The notes: generated from the sequence alone by a model not told the origin. A stretch of DNA of 64,000 bases from a virus (IMGVR_UViG_3300045988_106519:32001-96000); one strand, 5' to 3'. Shown: positions 36-24,121, numbered from the stretch's first letter. Made by a program: numbers and translations.

Positions 36-37
36 AG

Positions 38-111
38 TGGTTGATATGGGACTCAAACCCATACTCTTCCCTTTAGGAGAGGGATGCTTTATTCAATTAA
101 GCTAATCAACC
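38..111 (-). tRNA. tRNA-Arg, anticodon CCU
   Basis: Hand-folded cloverleaf: acceptor GGTTGAT/ATCAACC, D stem GCTT/AAGC, anticodon stem TCCCT/AGGGA with loop CTCCTAA, T stem ATGGG/CCCAT. Atypical features: the D loop lacks GG and the T loop is TTTGAGT. Confidence 0.75.
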
Positions 112-1807: not shown

Positions 1808-2137
1808 TCAATTATTAATATCAATCATTAGTCTAAGAAGAGTAGCACTTACAGTAGTTGCAAGGCTACCCTTCAAGAAGAAACCTCCAAGGTCTTCATT
1901 CCATAGTACCTTGAAAGTAACTTTATCAAGCACAATAGTGTCACCCTCATAGACCTCCTTTCCACTCTTATCTTTAAATCCAGTATATTGTCCAACAGTT
2001 AAAGGGTCAACTTCTACTCTATTACAAATAGAGTCTTTATACCATTCAATATATGTACCAAATGGAGTTTTGACAAGAGAACCGTACGCCCATTGGTTAT
2101 TGTCTTTGCGTTTACCACAAAATTTGAATGTTCTCAT
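1808..2137 (-). CDS. YopX-family phage protein
   Basis: KF..K......W.YGSL ... VDPLTVGQYTGFKDKSGKEVYEGDTIV matches the YopX signature. Confidence 0.75.
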   Translation of the reverse strand: MRTFKFCGKRKDNNQWAYGSLVKTPFGTYIEWYKDSICNRVEVDPLTVGQYTGFKDKSGKEVYEGDTIVLDKVTFKVLWNEDLGGFFLKGSLATTVSATLLRLMIDINN

Positions 2138-2140
2138 TAC

Positions 2141-2350
2141 TTATTCCTCCTTAAGTTCTACAGGTTTATCAGTCCAGCTAAGCTCTCGTCCGATGAGCTT
2201 CTTTATGCTGCCATTAGGAAGTTGGAAACCATAGGCTCCGTTTCTATCTTGTGGTAACCAATAGTTGTGCTCGTCATAATCACCAGCCCACATATCTGGC
2301 TTACAGTTGAATATCCATTCGCCAATATAATCTTTTGCTACCCATGCCAT
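2141..2350 (-). CDS. hypothetical protein
   Basis: ORF track; co-oriented with neighbours; 3-nt spacing. Confidence 0.6.
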   Translation of the reverse strand: MAWVAKDYIGEWIFNCKPDMWAGDYDEHNYWLPQDRNGAYGFQLPNGSIKKLIGRELSWTDKPVELKEE

Positions 2351-3928: not shown

Positions 3929-4083
3929 TGTTCTTCTTCCTTTCTTGGTTTTAAATTTTCACAACGGCATGTTGCTTCTCCGAAATTGATATTGGCAGGA
4001 AAAAAGTGATAATAACTACAATATCCACCATATAGGTCCGCATAAGGACAGCACGGACAATCCCCTTGTATTATATTCTCCAT
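3925..4083 (-). CDS. small Cys-rich protein (52 aa)
   Basis: Hand translation MENIIQGDCPCCPYADLYGGYCSYY...CRCENLK. Fills the gap between flanking genes. Confidence 0.45.
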   Translation of the reverse strand: MENIIQGDCPCCPYADLYGGYCSYYHFFPANINFGEATCRCENLKPRKEEEQ

Positions 4084-4088
4084 GTTTG

Positions 4089-4298
4089 TTAGACCTCCAA
4101 TTCTTTAAGATAAACATATACATCTGTAAATGTAAAGTTTGTCAGTTTTTTATATCTATTTACTACCTTTTCTACAAGATACCATTTGTTTTCAATGATA
4201 ACTTCCTCACCTATACAAGGAATATTATTGTAAGGGCATGTTTCATATTGCAATATGGAATTTTCCTCATCCTCTTTTTTATAAAAAAATACATTCAT
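4089..4298 (-). CDS. hypothetical protein
   Basis: ORF track. Preferred over the antisense plus-strand ORF 4086..4361 on strand context. Confidence 0.55.
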   Translation of the reverse strand: MNVFFYKKEDEENSILQYETCPYNNIPCIGEEVIIENKWYLVEKVVNRYKKLTNFTFTDVYVYLKELEV

Positions 4299-4459
4299 AA
4301 CAATCCCTTCAATTTTAAAGTCATTTCCTCAACCAAGTTTTCTACTTCTCCCCAATCGTGAGGGTCAAATCCTTCATTAAATAAAGCACTATCAGCTATT
4401 TTTTTATTTGATTTAAGAAGATTAAGAAATCTTCCTTGTCTATTTCTACTTTACTCATT
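4295..4459 (-). CDS. small hypothetical protein (54 aa)
   Basis: Hand translation MSKVEIDKEDFLIFLNQ...MTLKLKGLL. Overlapping stop/start at both ends. Confidence 0.45.
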
Positions 4460-6206: not shown

Positions 6207-6353
6207 CTAAATTGGTTCTTGTTTAATAACTTCGTCAAGCCTTGCCTCCATCTGCTGAATGATATTGTCTATTGTCTTGCCTTGATAATCAATAGTTACT
6301 TCTTTGAGGATAGCTAACTGTGATGTAAGTCTGAATCTGTTTGGTACTATCAT
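6207..6353 (-). CDS. small hypothetical protein (48 aa)
   Basis: Hand translation MIVPNRFRLTSQLAILKEVTIDYQGK... Starts 2 nt after the upstream stop. Confidence 0.4.
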   Translation of the reverse strand: MIVPNRFRLTSQLAILKEVTIDYQGKTIDNIIQQMEARLDEVIKQEPI

Positions 6354-6355
6354 AA

Positions 6356-6784
6356 TCACGTATGTTTAATTAAATAATCCTTGGCTCTCAATGCAACTCC
6401 CTTGATAGCAGTCTTCTTGTGAGTTACATTGCCAGTTGTTAAGTCATCTGCCATTTCCTCGATGGTGGTGAATTTAGCAATTAACTTATTGCGTAACTTT
6501 TGTTCTATTAACAAACGTTCTTTATTATCCACTCTATTACTTACCCATGCCGGAAATCCACCAATATTTCCAGTATACTCTGCATCTAAAACATAGAAAG
6601 GCACACCGAGATTATTGTGACTTGGTTCATATACCATAACTGATACATAAGAGTTGTTAAGAGGATTTGCTATATACATAACAGAGTCGTCTGGCATATT
6701 CCAGGTAATATCTCTAAATTTTCCAAGATTCATATAATTCCACGCCATATTCTTCCTTCTTTTTACTCTTCTCCCTGTTGCCAA
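6356..6784 (-). CDS. hypothetical protein
   Basis: ORF track. Confidence 0.6.
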   Translation of the reverse strand: MATGRRVKRRKNMAWNYMNLGKFRDITWNMPDDSVMYIANPLNNSYVSVMVYEPSHNNLGVPFYVLDAEYTGNIGGFPAWVSNRVDNKERLLIEQKLRNKLIAKFTTIEEMADDLTTGNVTHKKTAIKGVALRAKDYLIKHT

Positions 6785-16529: not shown

Positions 16530-16807
16530 TGTGATAATGTTTTTGTAATACTTAAAGAGAAATGTTGTAAAAAATGTAATATTGCTAAGTAGTTTTAACA
16601 AAAAAGTAGCTGGATAAGTTGCTGAAAGATAGATAGTTGACTTTTAAGAAGCAGTAAAAAATACTATAGGATTTAAAAGTGTGAAAGAATTGCCAGTTAA
16701 GAAAACCTCTTTATTGGGGAGAGGATTAATAACCAGCAATTCTAACACCTAACTATCTATAACACAATTACTTACAAACTTATTACACATACAATTTTAC
16801 TGTGCAA

Positions 16808-17128
16808 TTAGATGCCTAAATTGACATCCTGCCAAGCATTAGCACCAGCATTGCAAAGTGAGAAGTTACCACTATCAAGTTCAACAACCTGTAGTTCATC
16901 CTTTTTCTCTGCAATCTCCTTAGGTGAGAGAACACCAAGTTTAGAAGAGAAGGCTACAAAGGTTCTTGTGTTATCACTTGGATTAGTGAAGATGCAAGAC
17001 TTGAACATTTCTCCTGACTCTTGGTTGACAAATTCTCCAACCTGCATTTTACCATGAGACTTAGCAAAGTCAATGAGAGACCATGAATCCTTGATACCTT
17101 TCAAAACTGAACCATTATTGGTAGACAT
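16808..17128 (-). CDS. WSL-MQVGEF-FKSC-FVAFSSKLG family protein, stand-alone copy 1
   Basis: About 55-60% identical by eye to 19945..20274. The same domain occurs at the C-termini of 48472..49011 and 49004..49783. Confidence 0.75.
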   Translation of the reverse strand: MSTNNGSVLKGIKDSWSLIDFAKSHGKMQVGEFVNQESGEMFKSCIFTNPSDNTRTFVAFSSKLGVLSPKEIAEKKDELQVVELDSGNFSLCNAGANAWQDVNLGI

Positions 17129-17175
17129 TATACTTCCTCATCTCAGAGGCACTATCATTTGTAGACAATGACTAA

Positions 17176-17192
17176 CTGACTGCAATATAATA
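17176..17192 (-). promoter_or_regulatory. -7-like promoter box TATATTGCAGT about 55 nt upstream of 16808..17128
   Basis: Resembles the TAnnTTTGCAGT boxes at 21982 and 24555. The counterpart in the paralog upstream region is TCCATTTGTCAGT. Confidence 0.35.
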
Positions 17193-17263
17193 TTATTCCT
17201 CAAGGACAGTCAACCCTATTGGAATTATAAAACTATTAGAAGGCAGATATTCTGAGAATCCTC

Positions 17264-17300
17264 TATATCCCCTCAAGATATAGGAGTGGTGATGTGTCCC
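17264..17300 (-). repeat. conserved non-coding block shared with 20427..20465; partial third copy at 17951..17974
   Basis: Plus strand TATATCCCCTCAAGATATAGGAGTGGTGATGTGTCCC versus TATATCCCACTCCAAGATATAGTGGGGGTGGTGTGTTAC. Confidence 0.6.
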
Positions 17301-17578
17301 TTAAAATCTTATAAAACTATAAAACTTCTTTTCTTACAGAACTTACAGAAAAGAAAGAAATATATAAAGAAAGAAAAGATATGAGATTTGACATACATAA
17401 TCTATGTATAAGAAGTTTGTTGAATACAATTTCATTGACCTTTACTATAGGTATTGTTAATATAATGAATAGTATTCTATTCATCAATAAGTAATAAGAT
17501 ATTGTGAAGAAAAATACTATAGAATTAAATAAACAAATACTAATCTATTAATCAATAAATCATATGCTTCTGTTTCAA

Positions 17579-17619
17579 CAAATGCTAAAGTATTGAGGTA
17601 TTAAATGCTAAAGTATTGA
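17579..17619. repeat. 17-bp direct repeat AAATGCTAAAGTATTGA, two copies
   Basis: Exact copies start at 17580 and 17603. Confidence 0.8.
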
Positions 17620-17950
17620 ACAGAAAGTACTAGTGTAATAAAAATACGCTACTAATATAGTTAAATATGTTAAATAATTTGGTAATATAAAAACTCAGCA
17701 TATATTACTATATAATAGTAACAGATTTTCAACAAATAGGGTAGAGTGGATTAGTTCTATAGGGTTTAGTGAAGCAATATATTGTACAGAATGAAACAAC
17801 ATTTAGTGTAGATAAGCATAGATAAGTAGGGTAGATATGAGTAATTAAGTACTAAAGAATGAGGTATACAAATACTATAGAAGTTACTCAATATTTAGTA
17901 AAGAATAATATCAACAAATACTATTGTGTTTAATGATATTTACTATAAAA

Positions 17951-17974
17951 GACTAACTGTGATGTGTTCCCTTT
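17951..17974 (-). repeat. third, condensed copy of the conserved upstream blocks (GACTAACTG + TGATGTGTTCCCTT)
   Basis: Combines the two blocks found at 17170 and 17289 upstream of 16808..17128. Confidence 0.45.
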
Positions 17975-18200
17975 AGCTTATTAATCTAAGTATATTTGAA
18001 GAGGAATGTTCCTTCTGACCAGTAAAAGATAATAGTAGTAAGATTTATATAGAATAAGCTAAGTTTCTGTTTAGAATTGTGCTACTTTTCTCTCTTGGTT
18101 TGAGAGATTAGAGTGACTGAAAAATACTGATAGTACATCTTTATATGTTTGCATATATTATTGTAAAAACTGTAGTATAAGCTAAAAACTAATGATTGAA

Positions 18201-18236
18201 ATAAAAAAGCTAGCCCAATAGGGTTAGCTTTTATTC
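18201..18236 (-). terminator. rho-independent terminator (bidirectional architecture)
   Basis: 10-bp stem AAGCTAGCCC/GGGTTAGCTT with loop AATA, flanked by an A-run and a T-run. Lies just downstream of 18247..18441. Confidence 0.7.
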
Positions 18237-18246
18237 TGTCTAAGAC

Positions 18247-18441
18247 TTAAGACCTTAAAAATTTATACCAAGTTGAATAACCACTATACTTAATAAACTC
18301 TCTAAAGGTGATATTATTGTAGCACCATACAATTAAAGTTATATCAAGTGCTGCAAGAACTAACCAAGTAAGAGATAACTCTGTACAGCAGATGAGCAAT
18401 GTAGAAAGAGTAAATGTTATGTAAAATATGATTGCTTTCAT
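18247..18441 (-). CDS. small membrane protein with two TM segments
   Basis: ORF track; hydrophobic throughout. Confidence 0.55.
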   Translation of the reverse strand: MKAIIFYITFTLSTLLICCTELSLTWLVLAALDITLIVWCYNNITFREFIKYSGYSTWYKFLRS

Positions 18442-18507
18442 GATTGATATTTTTTATGAATGGAAAAAGGCTGCAAGGTAATGTACCAAGCAGCCTTTGT
18501 TTAGTGA

Positions 18508-18765
18508 TTATAGTCCAAGAGCTTTGCAGTGAATATTGTACTCTTCAATAGAGACCTTGATGTTTCTTCCAAAGATTTTGATTGTCTTGTACTTTGGAGT
18601 GATAGTATTGTCCTTGAAGATAGGTACATCAATACTTATCTCTCCATTTATTATCATGTTGTTGAAGTGAGAATGTCTTTCTTCAAGCATATTAAGGTGA
18701 ACTCTCTTGCTGGCTTCATAGTTATCACTTGAGCATACAGCATTACGGTTGATTTTCTTTCTCAT
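18508..18765 (-). CDS. hypothetical protein
   Basis: ORF track. Confidence 0.55.
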   Translation of the reverse strand: MRKKINRNAVCSSDNYEASKRVHLNMLEERHSHFNNMIINGEISIDVPIFKDNTITPKYKTIKIFGRNIKVSIEEYNIHCKALGL

Positions 18766-18782
18766 AGTTGTAAAGGATTTAG

Positions 18783-19061
18783 TTATTGATAAAGCTTGTT
18801 TATAAAATAGGAAAGTGTGCTTTCACATTGAATACTATCTAGTTTAGCTCTTGACTCATAATAATCTTGTGGGTCAAAAGCATCTACCCAGTCATATTTA
18901 TTATCAAGAGTATCAAGCAAATCTTCTGTAGCTTTGTTGTATGAATTATAAGCACTAAGAAGATTGTTAACTCTTGTATTGTTAGTATTTTGGCATACCA
19001 TAAAACCTGCAACCATACCAATTATCATTGATATGATGCAAAGAATGATAATTTTTTTCAT
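18783..19061 (-). CDS. membrane-anchored hypothetical protein
   Basis: N-terminal TM segment MKKIIILCIISMIIGMVAGFMV. Confidence 0.55.
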   Translation of the reverse strand: MKKIIILCIISMIIGMVAGFMVCQNTNNTRVNNLLSAYNSYNKATEDLLDTLDNKYDWVDAFDPQDYYESRAKLDSIQCESTLSYFINKLYQ

Positions 19062-19077
19062 TGTTATTGTGTGTAGA

Positions 19078-19112
19078 TAATAAAAGGTAAGAAAATCAAT
19101 GTCTTCTTACCC
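19078..19112 (-). terminator. rho-independent terminator
   Basis: Minus strand has stem GGTAAGAA/TTCTTACC followed by TTTTATT, downstream of 19127..19453. Confidence 0.6.
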
Positions 19113-19126
19113 TAATCTTTATATCA

Positions 19127-19453
19127 TTAAATATCTGATGGAATAGCTGGTATATCACAATATCCTACTATTATTCCTTCATATTTTAAGTTTGAATAAT
19201 AATGAACTTCTACTTCTTCTGATGTATTAAGGTCATTATCATAACTGTCTTCTGTAGACCAGTTATATTCAAATGACATCTTAAAGAGTCTTTTCTGTGC
19301 ATACATTATACACTCATAATGGGTATTATTACCACCTGTAGGATATCCTATTACATCAAGTACTACTGCTTTTATAGGATGCTCTACATTAGGAATAGTT
19401 ATTTCTAATATCTGTCCTTTCTCTATAGGTTGTCCATATATTATTTTTTCCAT
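19127..19453 (-). CDS. hypothetical protein
   Basis: ORF track. Confidence 0.6.
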   Translation of the reverse strand: MEKIIYGQPIEKGQILEITIPNVEHPIKAVVLDVIGYPTGGNNTHYECIMYAQKRLFKMSFEYNWSTEDSYDNDLNTSEEVEVHYYSNLKYEGIIVGYCDIPAIPSDI

Positions 19454-19511
19454 AATTCTTTTATTTAGAAGTAGTGCAGAGTTTTTTACTCCACACTACT
19501 TGTTATACATA

Positions 19512-19856
19512 TTACCATTCACCTTTCAAGGTGGCAATGAGTTCTTCTCTTACATAAGAAGGAAGCTCTACACCATAGGCTTCATCAAAGAATTTGCCTA
19601 ATGTAAGTACAAAAGTATCTGTTACTTCATTAGTTTCACCTACTGTAAAGAATACTTCATATCCATCTATAGGTATAGTTTCTCCTTCTTTTGGAACAGC
19701 ATAGCCATTAAACTCTATCATATCTCCTTGGAAGTCGGCAAGGTCATTTAAACAGTCTTCAAAATGATATATCATGAAGTTTTTTAGTTCTTCACAATTG
19801 TTGAGGCATTCAAATGTTGGAATTTTATTTTCAATCATAATAAAAACAGTCTTCAT
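19512..19856 (-). CDS. hypothetical acidic protein
   Basis: ORF track. Confidence 0.6.
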   Translation of the reverse strand: MKTVFIMIENKIPTFECLNNCEELKNFMIYHFEDCLNDLADFQGDMIEFNGYAVPKEGETIPIDGYEVFFTVGETNEVTDTFVLTLGKFFDEAYGVELPSYVREELIATLKGEW

Positions 19857-19944
19857 ACTAGAGTAGACTGAAAGAACTTTTGTTAATACTTTAAAGAATG
19901 ATTATTTTAATGAAAGGAGGAGCAGAAGCCCCTCCTTTATATTC

Positions 19945-20274
19945 TTAGAGTCCAAGGTCAACATTTTCCCAAGAGTCCTGCCCCTGATGGCAAAGTGAAT
20001 ACATGTCATCACCATCCTTTGTCTCACAGAGAACCACCTGAAGGTCATCCTTCTGTGCTGCAATTTCTCTTGGAGAGAGAACACCAAGCTTGCTGCTGAA
20101 TGCAACAAAGGTGCGAGTGTCACCCTTTGTGAAGATGCAGCTCTTAAATTTGTCACCAGATTCTGAGTTTACAAACTCACCAACCTGCATCTTAGGACCA
20201 AACTCTCTTGCAAATGAGAGAAGTGACCAGCTGTTCTTGATTTTGTTTGCCTGTGCCATAGATAGTTGCCTCAT
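19945..20274 (-). CDS. WSL-MQVGEF-FKSC-FVAFSSKLG family protein, stand-alone copy 2 (may start at the second Met, 20259)
   Basis: Paralog of 16808..17128. Followed by the hairpin at 19913..19938. Confidence 0.75.
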   Translation of the reverse strand: MRQLSMAQANKIKNSWSLLSFAREFGPKMQVGEFVNSESGDKFKSCIFTKGDTRTFVAFSSKLGVLSPREIAAQKDDLQVVLCETKDGDDMYSLCHQGQDSWENVDLGL

Positions 20275-20426
20275 AGCAGGACTTCATTAGTGCTATGCCT
20301 TTAGTTCCTCGGATGCTTTCTCCAGAGGCATGTATGCAGATGGATATTTGCCATTGAACAAACTGACAAATGGAAGGTTACTATTCTTCACCCTCAAATC
20401 ATCATGGAATGAAATACCCCAGGGGG

Positions 20427-20465
20427 TATATCCCACTCCAAGATATAGTGGGGGTGGTGTGTTAC
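20427..20465 (-). repeat. conserved non-coding block, copy of 17264..17300
   Basis: See 17264..17300. Confidence 0.6.
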
Positions 20466-20604
20466 ATTATCTTCCCTCTTTATACACACACTTCATTTTT
20501 CATCATTATCTATATCTACACATTTTATTATATACTATTTTGCTGTTAAAAGTATTATAAGTAACTTTGCAACAGAGCATTAGTAACAAATACATCTATA
20601 AGAA

Positions 20605-20925
20605 ATGAAAGGATTGGAAGTATATATCTCAAAGCATGGTAGGCACTTTACTGAAAGACTTGCCATTGCAGCTATAGACAATAGATGGAGTCCCTCAGAA
20701 ATAGAAAGATCTTCTGAAGCAATGGTTTATTATAATGTGTCTGAGGCAACATTAGGAGATATAGTATTTCTAGTCAATAAGTATAAGAAGAATCATTGTT
20801 GTGCTACTAAGAAGAAATGTCTTAGATATGCTCTTAATATAATAGGAGATTATAGTTCCAATGGTTATGCTTTTACTCTGTTTACTTTACTGAATAGCAG
20901 TATAGATTTAAAAGAATATGTATAA
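20605..20925 (+). CDS. hypothetical protein
   Basis: ORF track; followed by a terminator hairpin. Confidence 0.55.
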   Translation: MKGLEVYISKHGRHFTERLAIAAIDNRWSPSEIERSSEAMVYYNVSEATLGDIVFLVNKYKKNHCCATKKKCLRYALNIIGDYSSNGYAFTLFTLLNSSIDLKEYV

Positions 20926-24017: not shown

Positions 24018-24092
24018 GTTTCAATAGCTCAGTTGGATTAGAGCAACAGCCTTCTAAGCTGTGGGTCTTGGGTTCGAACCCCAACGGAATCA
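24018..24092 (+). tRNA. tRNA-Arg(UCU)-derived sequence with a non-pairing 5' acceptor strand; putative attP core
   Basis: D arm, anticodon arm (ACAGC/CTTCTAA/GCTGT), T arm (TTGGG/TTCGAAC/CCCAA) and 3' strand CGGAATC-A are intact. The 5' strand GTTTCAA pairs at only 4 of 7 positions. Confidence 0.6.
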
Positions 24093-24121
24093 CAACGAAA
24101 AAATGCTTCAAATTTGATTGT

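Follow-up and report, generated by a model that had tools for sequence, protein, structure and literature searches.

The stretch analysed here, IMGVR_UViG_3300045988_106519:32001-96000 (64,000 nucleotides (nt), hereafter the window), comes from the genome of a crAss-like phage and carries on its minus strand two stand-alone genes, A and B, encoding members of an uncharacterised protein family of about 100 amino acids (aa). Each copy is organised as a cassette composed of a sequence box designated motif 1, a conserved leader of 175–205 nt, the gene, and a hairpin (Table 1). The leader of gene A is a conserved, strand-specific pseudoknotted RNA, which lies a constant distance ahead of the start codon of this one family and nowhere else in the material examined.

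The open reading frames (ORFs) at 16808-17128 and 19945-20274 had been described as paralogs in the original prediction, and the alignment of their products bears this out, with 61% identity over 100 aa (E 4e-41) and both genes on the minus strand. Gene B probably starts at the second ATG of its ORF (20259, MAQANK...), since in relatives the gene opens at the matching codon, and the first ATG either falls outside the reading frame or follows a stop codon. Among 5.8 billion proteins searched there were 562 homologues, nearly all 104–107 aa long and with no Pfam domain on record, and a profile search of cluster representatives (E < 1e-3) yielded 466 clusters at 50% identity. The family had not been recognised in the original prediction either, and sequence searches of Pfam, PHROGs, NCBIfam, and PDB, with single proteins as well as with a 70-member alignment, produced nothing usable. 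Weak Myb_DNA-binding_7 matches (best E 0.003) were set aside; the protein is predicted to be mostly β-strand. Many phage lineages carry a pair of these genes, with a 'B-type' copy located 0.7–3 kb upstream of an 'A-type' copy. Because this arrangement is kept across so many lineages, the duplication is old, with both copies maintained, and the suspicion of a recent duplication artefact is not upheld. The same module of ~95 aa is also found as the C-terminal domain of 258–338-aa proteins encoded ~78 kb away in the same phage genomes, there without the leader; for the N-terminal parts of these proteins no Pfam domain was found, and a cluster look-up yielded no names. In metagenomic proteins, the family domain is fused to BspA-type leucine-rich repeats (LRR; LRR_5) and to Ser/Thr kinase domains.

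To compare the upstream regions, the 300 nt preceding every stand-alone family gene were taken from 150 related loci, which gave 109 distinct sequences. These sort into a few types, all of which open with a version of motif 1. Each upstream region is strongly kept among orthologues: identity in the leader core is 72–90%, against 47–60% at the third positions of identical codons. Among orthologues at 57–79% protein identity, the 100-nt leader core of gene A is 72–83% identical, compared with 63–75% for coding DNA and 47–60% for third positions of identical codons. The proposal that a regulatory element, DNA or RNA, is under selection ahead of each copy thus gains support: the leaders are more conserved than the coding sequence, and leader A contains five helices with compensatory changes. 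The similarity between the two paralogous upstream regions is more limited than was first thought. The two plus-strand strings quoted in the original prediction are present exactly at 17264-17300 and 20427-20465 (on the gene strand, GGGACACATCACCACTCCTATATCTTGAGGGGATATA and GTAACACACCACCCCCACTATATCTTGGAGTGGGATATA), and the short words CCTCTGAG, CCTCTGGAG, CAGTCAGTTAG, and TCAGTTTGTTC lie where they were reported, but the regions are not alignable block by block. Just one block of ~35 nt rises above chance (local score 22 vs 11 ± 1.9 for shuffles, maximum 19), the global alignment score is only ~2 standard deviations above shuffles, and the further shared blocks proved to be parts of two different leader architectures. 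The 10-mer CTATATCTTG occurs twice in the 64 kb, each time upstream of a copy and on the gene strand. The alternative hairpins proposed within the shared block (CTATATC/GATATAG versus CCCACT/AGTGGG) are either not kept or not covarying in orthologues; the covarying structure lies downstream of this block, in leader parts that are not common to the two paralogs.

The first hairpin of leader A varies between orthologues, and its outer pairs change compensatorily (GAGGG/CCUUC, GAGAG/CUCUU, GAAGGA/UCCUUC). The core behind it comprises P1, a hairpin of 11 positions with a 7-nt apical loop, the pseudoknot helix (PK), and the hairpins P2 and P3. A covariance model was built from 10 sequences on PK, P2, and P3 only, with P1 left out, and gave one match in the window and 72 matches in 100 sources. 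Wherever their ends were compared with protein-match coordinates, these matches end at the family start codon, whereas the fused, domain-only copies gave no match. The element therefore has the position of a cis-regulatory leader, i.e., a fixed place immediately upstream of one gene and on the same strand. In the model-fitted alignment of 56 distinct rows, 24 of the 25 pairs show changes on both sides (217 cells), a level reached by none of 500 shuffles, and 86% of cells pair, as against 39–56% with slid partners. P1 also shows both-side changes in most of its pairs (columns 2-5/27-30 and 9-12/20-23) although it was outside the model; examples are AUUCC/GGAAU, ACUCU/AGAGU, AACUU/AAGUU, CUUUU/AAAAG, GUGUU/AACAC, AGCC/GGCU, and UAAC/GUUA.

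Since a model-fitted alignment favours its own model, the test was repeated on a plain MAFFT alignment of 17 diverse cores. On this alignment RNAalifold recovered PK, P2, and P3 unaided, with compensatory changes in 16 of 18 pairs. With P1 included under a second type of bracket, the share of paired cells is 92% (36–53% when slid), and double changes are seen in 21 of 23 pairs, again matched by 0 of 500 shuffles. P1 interleaves with PK (columns 15-19 with 48-52 or 51-55), which is the arrangement of an H-type pseudoknot; all five PK pairs and 6–7 of the eight P1 pairs in the columns given above change on both sides, and 95–99% of PK cells are paired. G·U pairs are frequent (e.g., 38 at columns 12/20 and 14 at columns 5/27), and because many of them would be A·C mismatches on the other strand, the RNA has the polarity of the gene. 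Several unpaired nucleotides of leader A are near-invariant, namely the AAU/UGA internal loop, UAUAUUG, AGUUAG, CAGUG, and the loop UGAGAU. An upstream ORF starting from an AUG in P3 was rejected, as its length and frame are unconserved and the AUG is missing in some variants. A scan of the whole window with Rfam 15 at the gathering threshold returned two tRNAs only, and a relaxed scan of 16700-20700 (E ≤ 5) gave four chance matches, none in either leader.

Table 1. Features of the two cassettes and related elements, listed in the 5' to 3' order of the minus strand; positions refer to the window unless a locus is named.
Feature	Position	Strand	Description
Promoter-like block TGTATAAAGAGGGAAGATAAT	20466-20486	-	Ends in -10-like GATAAT, 3 nt before motif 1 of copy B
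Motif 1, copy B: TAACACACCACCCCCACTATATCTTG	20439-20464	-	G-poor box common to copy A
Type-B leader body	20260-20438	-	Multi-hairpin RNA with a fold unlike leader A
Gene B	19945-20259	-	104 aa from the second ATG, the probable start; ORF as listed extends to 20274
Hairpin just after gene B	19911-19938	-	Strong, 11 bp, no U tract; read from sequence
Element 3: AACACATCACAGTTAGTCTTT	17948-17968	-	Shorter box resembling motif 1; not followed by a family gene
Motif 1, copy A: AGGGACACATCACCACTCCTATATCTTG	17274-17301	-	G-poor box common to copy B
Variable first hairpin, leader A	17238-17273	-	In every long-form orthologue; sequence and length differ
Linker AAUAGUUUUAUA	17226-17237	-	Conserved, single-stranded
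Type-A leader core	17126-17225	-	RNA, 100 nt; only covariance-model match in the window, 109 bits
P1	5' arm 17214-17225, 3' arm 17195-17206	-	ATTCC-AAT-AGGG with TCCT-TGA-GGAAT; apical loop UUGACUG
Pseudoknot (PK)	17207-17211 with 17178-17182	-	Loop GACUG pairs with CAGUC ~13 nt downstream of P1
P2	17155-17171	-	UCAUU/AAUGA
P3	17136-17149	-	CCUC-UGAGAU-GAGG, followed by 7 nt and AUG
Gene A	16808-17128	-	ORF of 106 aa; stand-alone member of the uncharacterised ~100-aa family
Hairpin after gene A	16699-16724	-	Terminator-like: CCTCT-9 nt-AGAGG, then TTTTCTT; read from sequence
Fused copies	Loci L028-L034, L037, L040, L043-L044		C-terminal family domain; proteins P0121, P0128, P0129, P0131, P0158, P0165
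Tandem motif 1	L042 about 2745-2900; L027 about 2120-2290		Two copies before one family gene

Leader B extends over ~205 nt in all (20464-20257). RNAalifold analysis of 9 sequences from about six lineages gave 48 pairs, 11 of them with compensatory changes, and 97.7% of cells are paired compared with 33–48% in slid controls; the window sequence itself folds better than shuffles (z -2.4). As in leader A, the first hairpin begins at the G of the TTG that ends motif 1 or at the next base (GGAGUG/CAUUCC, GGAAUG/CAUUCC, GGAUUG/CAAUCC). A 47-aa ORF within the leader (20293-20436) was considered and rejected, as relatives have 1–4-nt indels and the region covaries as RNA. Hybrid 'B-prime' (B') leaders were also found, in which a B-like 5' module is joined to an A-like core with other stem sequences (CACCAC/GUGGUG, GACCU/AGGUC, and CUC-UGAGAG-GAG; row L012:183), and the leaders are modular on the strength of these hybrids. 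One protein family is thus served by several unrelated leader folds (A, B, B', and others), a pattern that points to protein-binding leaders rather than riboswitches.

Motif 1, the shared box of ~35 nt (ACACAYCACC..TATATCTTG), is A/C-rich and almost free of G and ends in TAnnnYTTG; examples from orthologues are ACACATCACCACYCCTATATCTTG, ACACACCACCCCCACCATAATTTG, AACACCCCACCCAGCTTTTG, and AAACAGAACTCCACCTATATTTTG. It is conserved by sequence and not by covariation. The string ACACAYCAC occurs three times in the window, always on the minus strand: in the two copies of motif 1 (17289-17297 and 20454-20462) and in element 3 (17959-17967). True matches of the 19-mer ACACAYCACCMCYMCTATA in IMG/VR lie only upstream of family genes; five extra IMG/VR matches, as well as 9-mer matches, raised the possibility of motif 1 ahead of other genes, but these fall inside unrelated coding regions and were dismissed as chance. 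Element 3 is kept in all lineages, and relatives as a rule have the trio of B leader, element 3, and A leader. Upstream of element 3 the lineages have unrelated sequences, and downstream of it their sequences are conserved. These features speak for motif 1 as an autonomous element. The sharp boundary at element 3 resembles a junction created by recombination or between modules, or else the beginning of a transcription unit.

The original prediction had also noted a -7-like box. Motif 1, with its TAnnnYTTG end, does resemble the promoter of the Bacteroides primary sigma factor (-33 TTTG / -7 TAnnTTTG), but it lacks a -33 TTTG, its spacing exceeds that of the consensus by one base, and the covarying first hairpin begins at the G of TTG or at the next base. 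Because that hairpin begins there, the transcript must start at or before this G and not 5–7 nt downstream, and the -7 reading is therefore not supported. Two readings remain: motif 1 may be (i) a phage-type promoter ending at +1 or (ii) the first ~25 nt of the RNA. Phage promoters that end at the start site include the T7-type 23-bp promoter, the AT-rich motif of the P23-45 virion two-barrel RNA polymerase, and the hairpin promoters of the N4 virion RNA polymerase. Motif 1 is similar to these in that it measures ~26 bp, is conserved in sequence, occurs few times per genome and in one orientation, and ends exactly where the first hairpin (GGAG...) begins. It differs in having, in most variants, a -10-like hexamer 3–10 nt upstream (GATAAT, TATAAG, TAATCT, TAGTCA), and this hexamer suggests that motif 1 is the 5' end of the RNA. 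Reading (i) is also disfavoured by a study of the marine crAss-like phage phi14:2, where no common motif was found upstream of early transcripts (bioRxiv 10.1101/2020.03.07.982082).

In the case of leader B, the hexamer closes a conserved 21-mer (20466-20486) that has a single match in the window and a degenerate second copy upstream. This promoter-like block is conserved upstream of type-B leaders in other lineages, often as 2–3 tandem copies; being unique in the window, it was rejected as a general promoter. Matches to the sigma-70 consensus were no commoner than in shuffles. Some lineages have two tandem copies of motif 1, ~100–110 nt apart, before one family gene, with a hairpin of its own after each copy; such copies could be tandem promoters or a repeated RNA module.

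AlphaFold2 models of the protein were obtained from 10 and from 70 sequences (pLDDT, the predicted local distance difference test, 69 and 72). Both models show the order strand–helix–three strands–helix–two strands with disordered ends, and the last five elements follow the canonical order of the oligonucleotide/oligosaccharide-binding (OB) fold. A Foldseek search against PDB gave no significant match (E at least 0.05, template modelling (TM) score 0.2–0.35), although most of the proteins listed are OB proteins (RPA, HIN-200, uS12/eS23, ExoVII); the best structural matches have E 0.05–0.12 and TM 0.25–0.35. Against BFVD, the significant matches are uncharacterised crAss-like virus proteins, and the weak ones are single-stranded DNA-binding proteins (SSBs) and baculovirus LEF-3. 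Profile comparison with hhalign detected no similarity to E. coli SSB (probability 0.2%). With CspA it aligned GKMQVGEFVN...FT.P....TFVAFSS to GKMTGIVKWFN...FITP....VFVHFSA at a probability of 10%, and with a cold-shock profile of 7 sequences the probability was 2.8% over 24 columns. The Pfam cold-shock domain (CSD) had no match among the 70 members, and NCBIfam CspC reached E 0.07 in one member. The consensus C-terminus, W-E-D-V-D-L-x-x, is acidic-hydrophobic; residues 96-106 are of low confidence, and this tail is predicted to be disordered and is much shorter than that of bacterial SSB. The models suggest a small OB-like, possibly nucleic-acid-binding protein, which we treat as a lead rather than a result.

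Turning to the genomic setting, the plus strand of the window encodes the terminase large subunit, the major head protein, and a large virion structural protein, while a long run of small ORFs without assigned function occupies the minus strand. Near-identical contigs, 111–128 kb long, are present in IMG/VR. Among annotated phage records, a homologue of the family was detected by tblastn only in cr116_1 and IAS virus, both of the Crassvirales family Steigviridae, and megablast of the 4.1-kb region against phage records gave no match. In GTDB genomes, the family is confined to contigs that are evidently phage DNA binned into metagenome-assembled genomes. In the RefSeq record of cr116_1 (NC_055882.1), one paralog (4058-4375) is unannotated and directly follows a 13-tRNA array at the strand switch; the other (6209-6520) is listed as 'hypothetical protein'. 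The window has tRNA-Arg genes at 37-111 (minus strand, anticodon CCT) and 24018-24093 (plus strand, anticodon TCT), the latter at the switch from minus- to plus-strand genes, where the cumulative GC skew has its minimum (20–24 kb). A 106-aa ORF without a PHROGs match (20605-20925, plus strand) lies opposite, between the promoter region of cassette B and the next minus-strand gene. Further along the plus strand (39329-62252) are four giant ORFs of 1112–2453 aa, three of which have no PHROGs match. The DFDxD signature expected of the crAss virion RNA polymerase is absent from these four; the polymerase gene may lie outside the window or carry a variant motif.

Between the ORF at 18247-18441 and cassette A there is an unusually long AT-rich non-coding stretch of 0.95 kb (17302-18246, minus strand). 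It contains about five degenerate repeats of ~35 nt around ATAGTATTTGT and a perfect 17-nt direct repeat whose copies are 23 nt apart (17580-17596 and 17603-17619). As the distance from element 3 to motif 1 of copy A is only ~135 nt in other lineages, ~530 nt here represents a lineage-specific insertion or expansion. The stretch may serve as an origin, an array of promoters, or a gene for a non-coding RNA. A polypyrimidine mirror repeat, CTTTTCTTTCTTTATATATTTCTTTCTTTTC (17348-17378, minus strand), lies ~50 nt ahead of motif 1 of copy A; it is kept in several otherwise divergent lineages (L008, L011, L012, L018, L021, L087, L089) and is a candidate triplex-forming or protein-binding site. Neither of the closing hairpins was called by a terminator scan, that of gene A because its loop is 9 nt.

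Taken together, we tentatively propose that the leaders are a new cis-acting RNA, a translational operator bound by the product of the gene that follows. Each copy would be a self-contained expression cassette, in which the leader is transcribed with the gene and acts in cis on its translation. The small, β-rich, OB-like product would bind the leader as its operator, and binding would stabilise PK, P2, and P3 beside an unstructured initiation region devoid of a Shine-Dalgarno sequence and so limit access of the 30S subunit; the outcome would be autogenous control in the manner of T4 gene 32, cspA, and ribosomal-protein leaders. Translation in Bacteroidota relies on an open, A/U-rich initiation region. 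Shine-Dalgarno sequences are missing from the neighbouring genes, so that initiation requires the surroundings of the AUG to remain open; the PK–P2–P3 stack, ending 7 nt before this codon, is therefore well placed to gate 30S binding. The gene's own product is favoured as the effector because a single family is tied to the leaders, their folds are several and unrelated, the predicted topology is OB-like, and T4 gene 32 and cspA offer a parallel.

Several points weigh against this proposal. We infer that the leaders regulate in cis, that they are bound by protein, and that the protein is of a nucleic-acid-binding kind, and equally we infer the transcription start and the co-transcription of leader and gene. 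Nested minimum free energy folding of the leader A window sequence gives no thermodynamic signal (z +0.29), and the case for leader A is accordingly a comparative one. Support for leader B is weaker than for A, as its 9 sequences are closely related, the alignment used for the test also supplied the structure, and no variation is seen in the 5' helices. The OB assignment is without significance, both by Foldseek and by hhalign (none for SSB, 3–10% for CSD), and the LRR and kinase fusions suggest a role in protein interaction as much as nucleic-acid binding. Finally, the highly conserved unpaired nucleotides of leader A would fit a ligand pocket equally well.

The leaders could instead be constitutive RNA elements without feedback, acting on mRNA stability through the 5' hairpin, on ribosome recruitment in a host without Shine-Dalgarno sequences, or in antitermination like the put RNAs of HK022. 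We consider this rather unlikely, even though both leaders have a hairpin at their very start, right after motif 1, and each cassette closes with a hairpin that would have to be read through for the downstream genes; the two related 5' modules behind two promoter-proximal boxes may be likened to putL and putR. Stability or antitermination would leave unexplained why PK, P2, and P3 covary beside the AUG at a fixed distance in 72 cases, and why the element is absent before other genes.

A riboswitch, in which the pseudoknotted core of leader A would be the aptamer, sensing a small molecule or ion, and P3 the expression platform, appears doubtful. In its favour are the compact H-type pseudoknot and its near-invariant unpaired nucleotides; a place beside the start codon is typical of pseudoknot riboswitches, and with no Rfam match this would be a new class. 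However, the element is followed by a single small family without an evident metabolic role rather than by several related genes, it is found in phage contigs only, and the same gene family has structurally unrelated leaders (types B and B'') that lack the aptamer-like core of A. More speculatively, and with little expectation that it holds as a whole, motif 1 may be the promoter and initially transcribed sequence for the phage's own transcription machinery at three immediate-early units per genome (cassette B, element 3, and cassette A), with leader and OB-like protein forming a new RNA–protein feedback module; its role would be to set how much is made of an abundant early factor for host takeover or nucleic-acid binding. 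In a variant of this scheme, the leader A core would be a new riboswitch class confined to Crassvirales.

It is improbable that the leader is itself a functional non-coding RNA, processed from the transcript or acting as the ribonucleoprotein partner of the encoded protein, in the manner of the abundant non-coding RNAs from the early region of phi14:2. Long intergenic regions near early genes are transcribed very highly in phi14:2 (bioRxiv 10.1101/2020.03.07.982082), and the 0.95-kb non-coding stretch with its third motif-1-like box adjoins cassette A; against this, no terminator or processing signal separates the structured core from the start codon that it adjoins, and the RNA has no similarity to any Rfam gene-type RNA. 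Conservation at the DNA level only, with promoter or operator DNA as the target and the helices as by-products, would agree with the sequence conservation of motif 1 without covariation, its presence as element 3 without a family gene, and the promoter-like block abutting leader B, but is strongly disfavoured and very improbable for the leader bodies, since protein-binding DNA sites cannot explain compensatory changes in 21–24 pairs and strand-specific G·U pairs, and the 100–200 nt conserved go far beyond the needs of a promoter.

Structured cis-acting leaders of phage mRNAs are known as a kind of element. Pseudoknot leaders with an autoregulatory role are widespread ahead of gp32 homologues and are not included in Rfam (PMC10690425). 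The T4 gene 32 operator likewise lies in a phage mRNA leader, contains an H-type pseudoknot, and precedes the gene for a small OB-type protein, and the same block of initiation by the gene's own product is proposed here. There is, however, no sequence or structural homology: two conserved hairpins follow the pseudoknot here, compared with a long unstructured A/U tract in T4, and the family protein is one third the size of gp32, with its OB fold and binding predicted only. The cspA 5' untranslated region is comparable in that an unusually long (~160 nt), structured, conserved leader governs the translation of a very small β-barrel protein, but Rfam gave no match to the cspA element, and the similarity of the protein to CSD is weak and local (hhalign 3–10%). 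Ribosomal-protein leaders (e.g., L20, S15, L1) are also structured and tied to one protein family, with unrelated folds between lineages or paralogs as in A, B, and B'; the protein here is not ribosomal, and its Foldseek likeness to uS12/eS23 is insignificant. As far as we can tell, novelty lies in the RNA family, in its pseudoknot architecture, in its association with a duplicated, uncharacterised protein family, and in the motif 1 common to both copies. Our literature search found, in the sources covered, no description of this leader RNA and no cis-regulatory RNA described for Crassvirales; the leader may be among the unnamed candidates of two large computational screens (PMC10690425, PMC8040213), of which the 2023 phage screen lists more than 10,000.

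Of all viruses in the human gut, Crassvirales are the most abundant, and their gene regulation is almost unknown. The analysis provides an RNA structure that is backed by covariation, placed at exact coordinates, and linked to a widespread, completely uncharacterised family; this family is maintained as a duplicated pair, and its domain has been recruited into proteins with LRR or kinase modules. With motif 1 there is a concrete candidate for a promoter or 5' signature specific to the phage. The binding target of the protein, a possible control of early proteins by leader pseudoknots in Bacteroidota that initiate without Shine-Dalgarno sequences, and the starts of early transcripts are now testable in cultured relatives.

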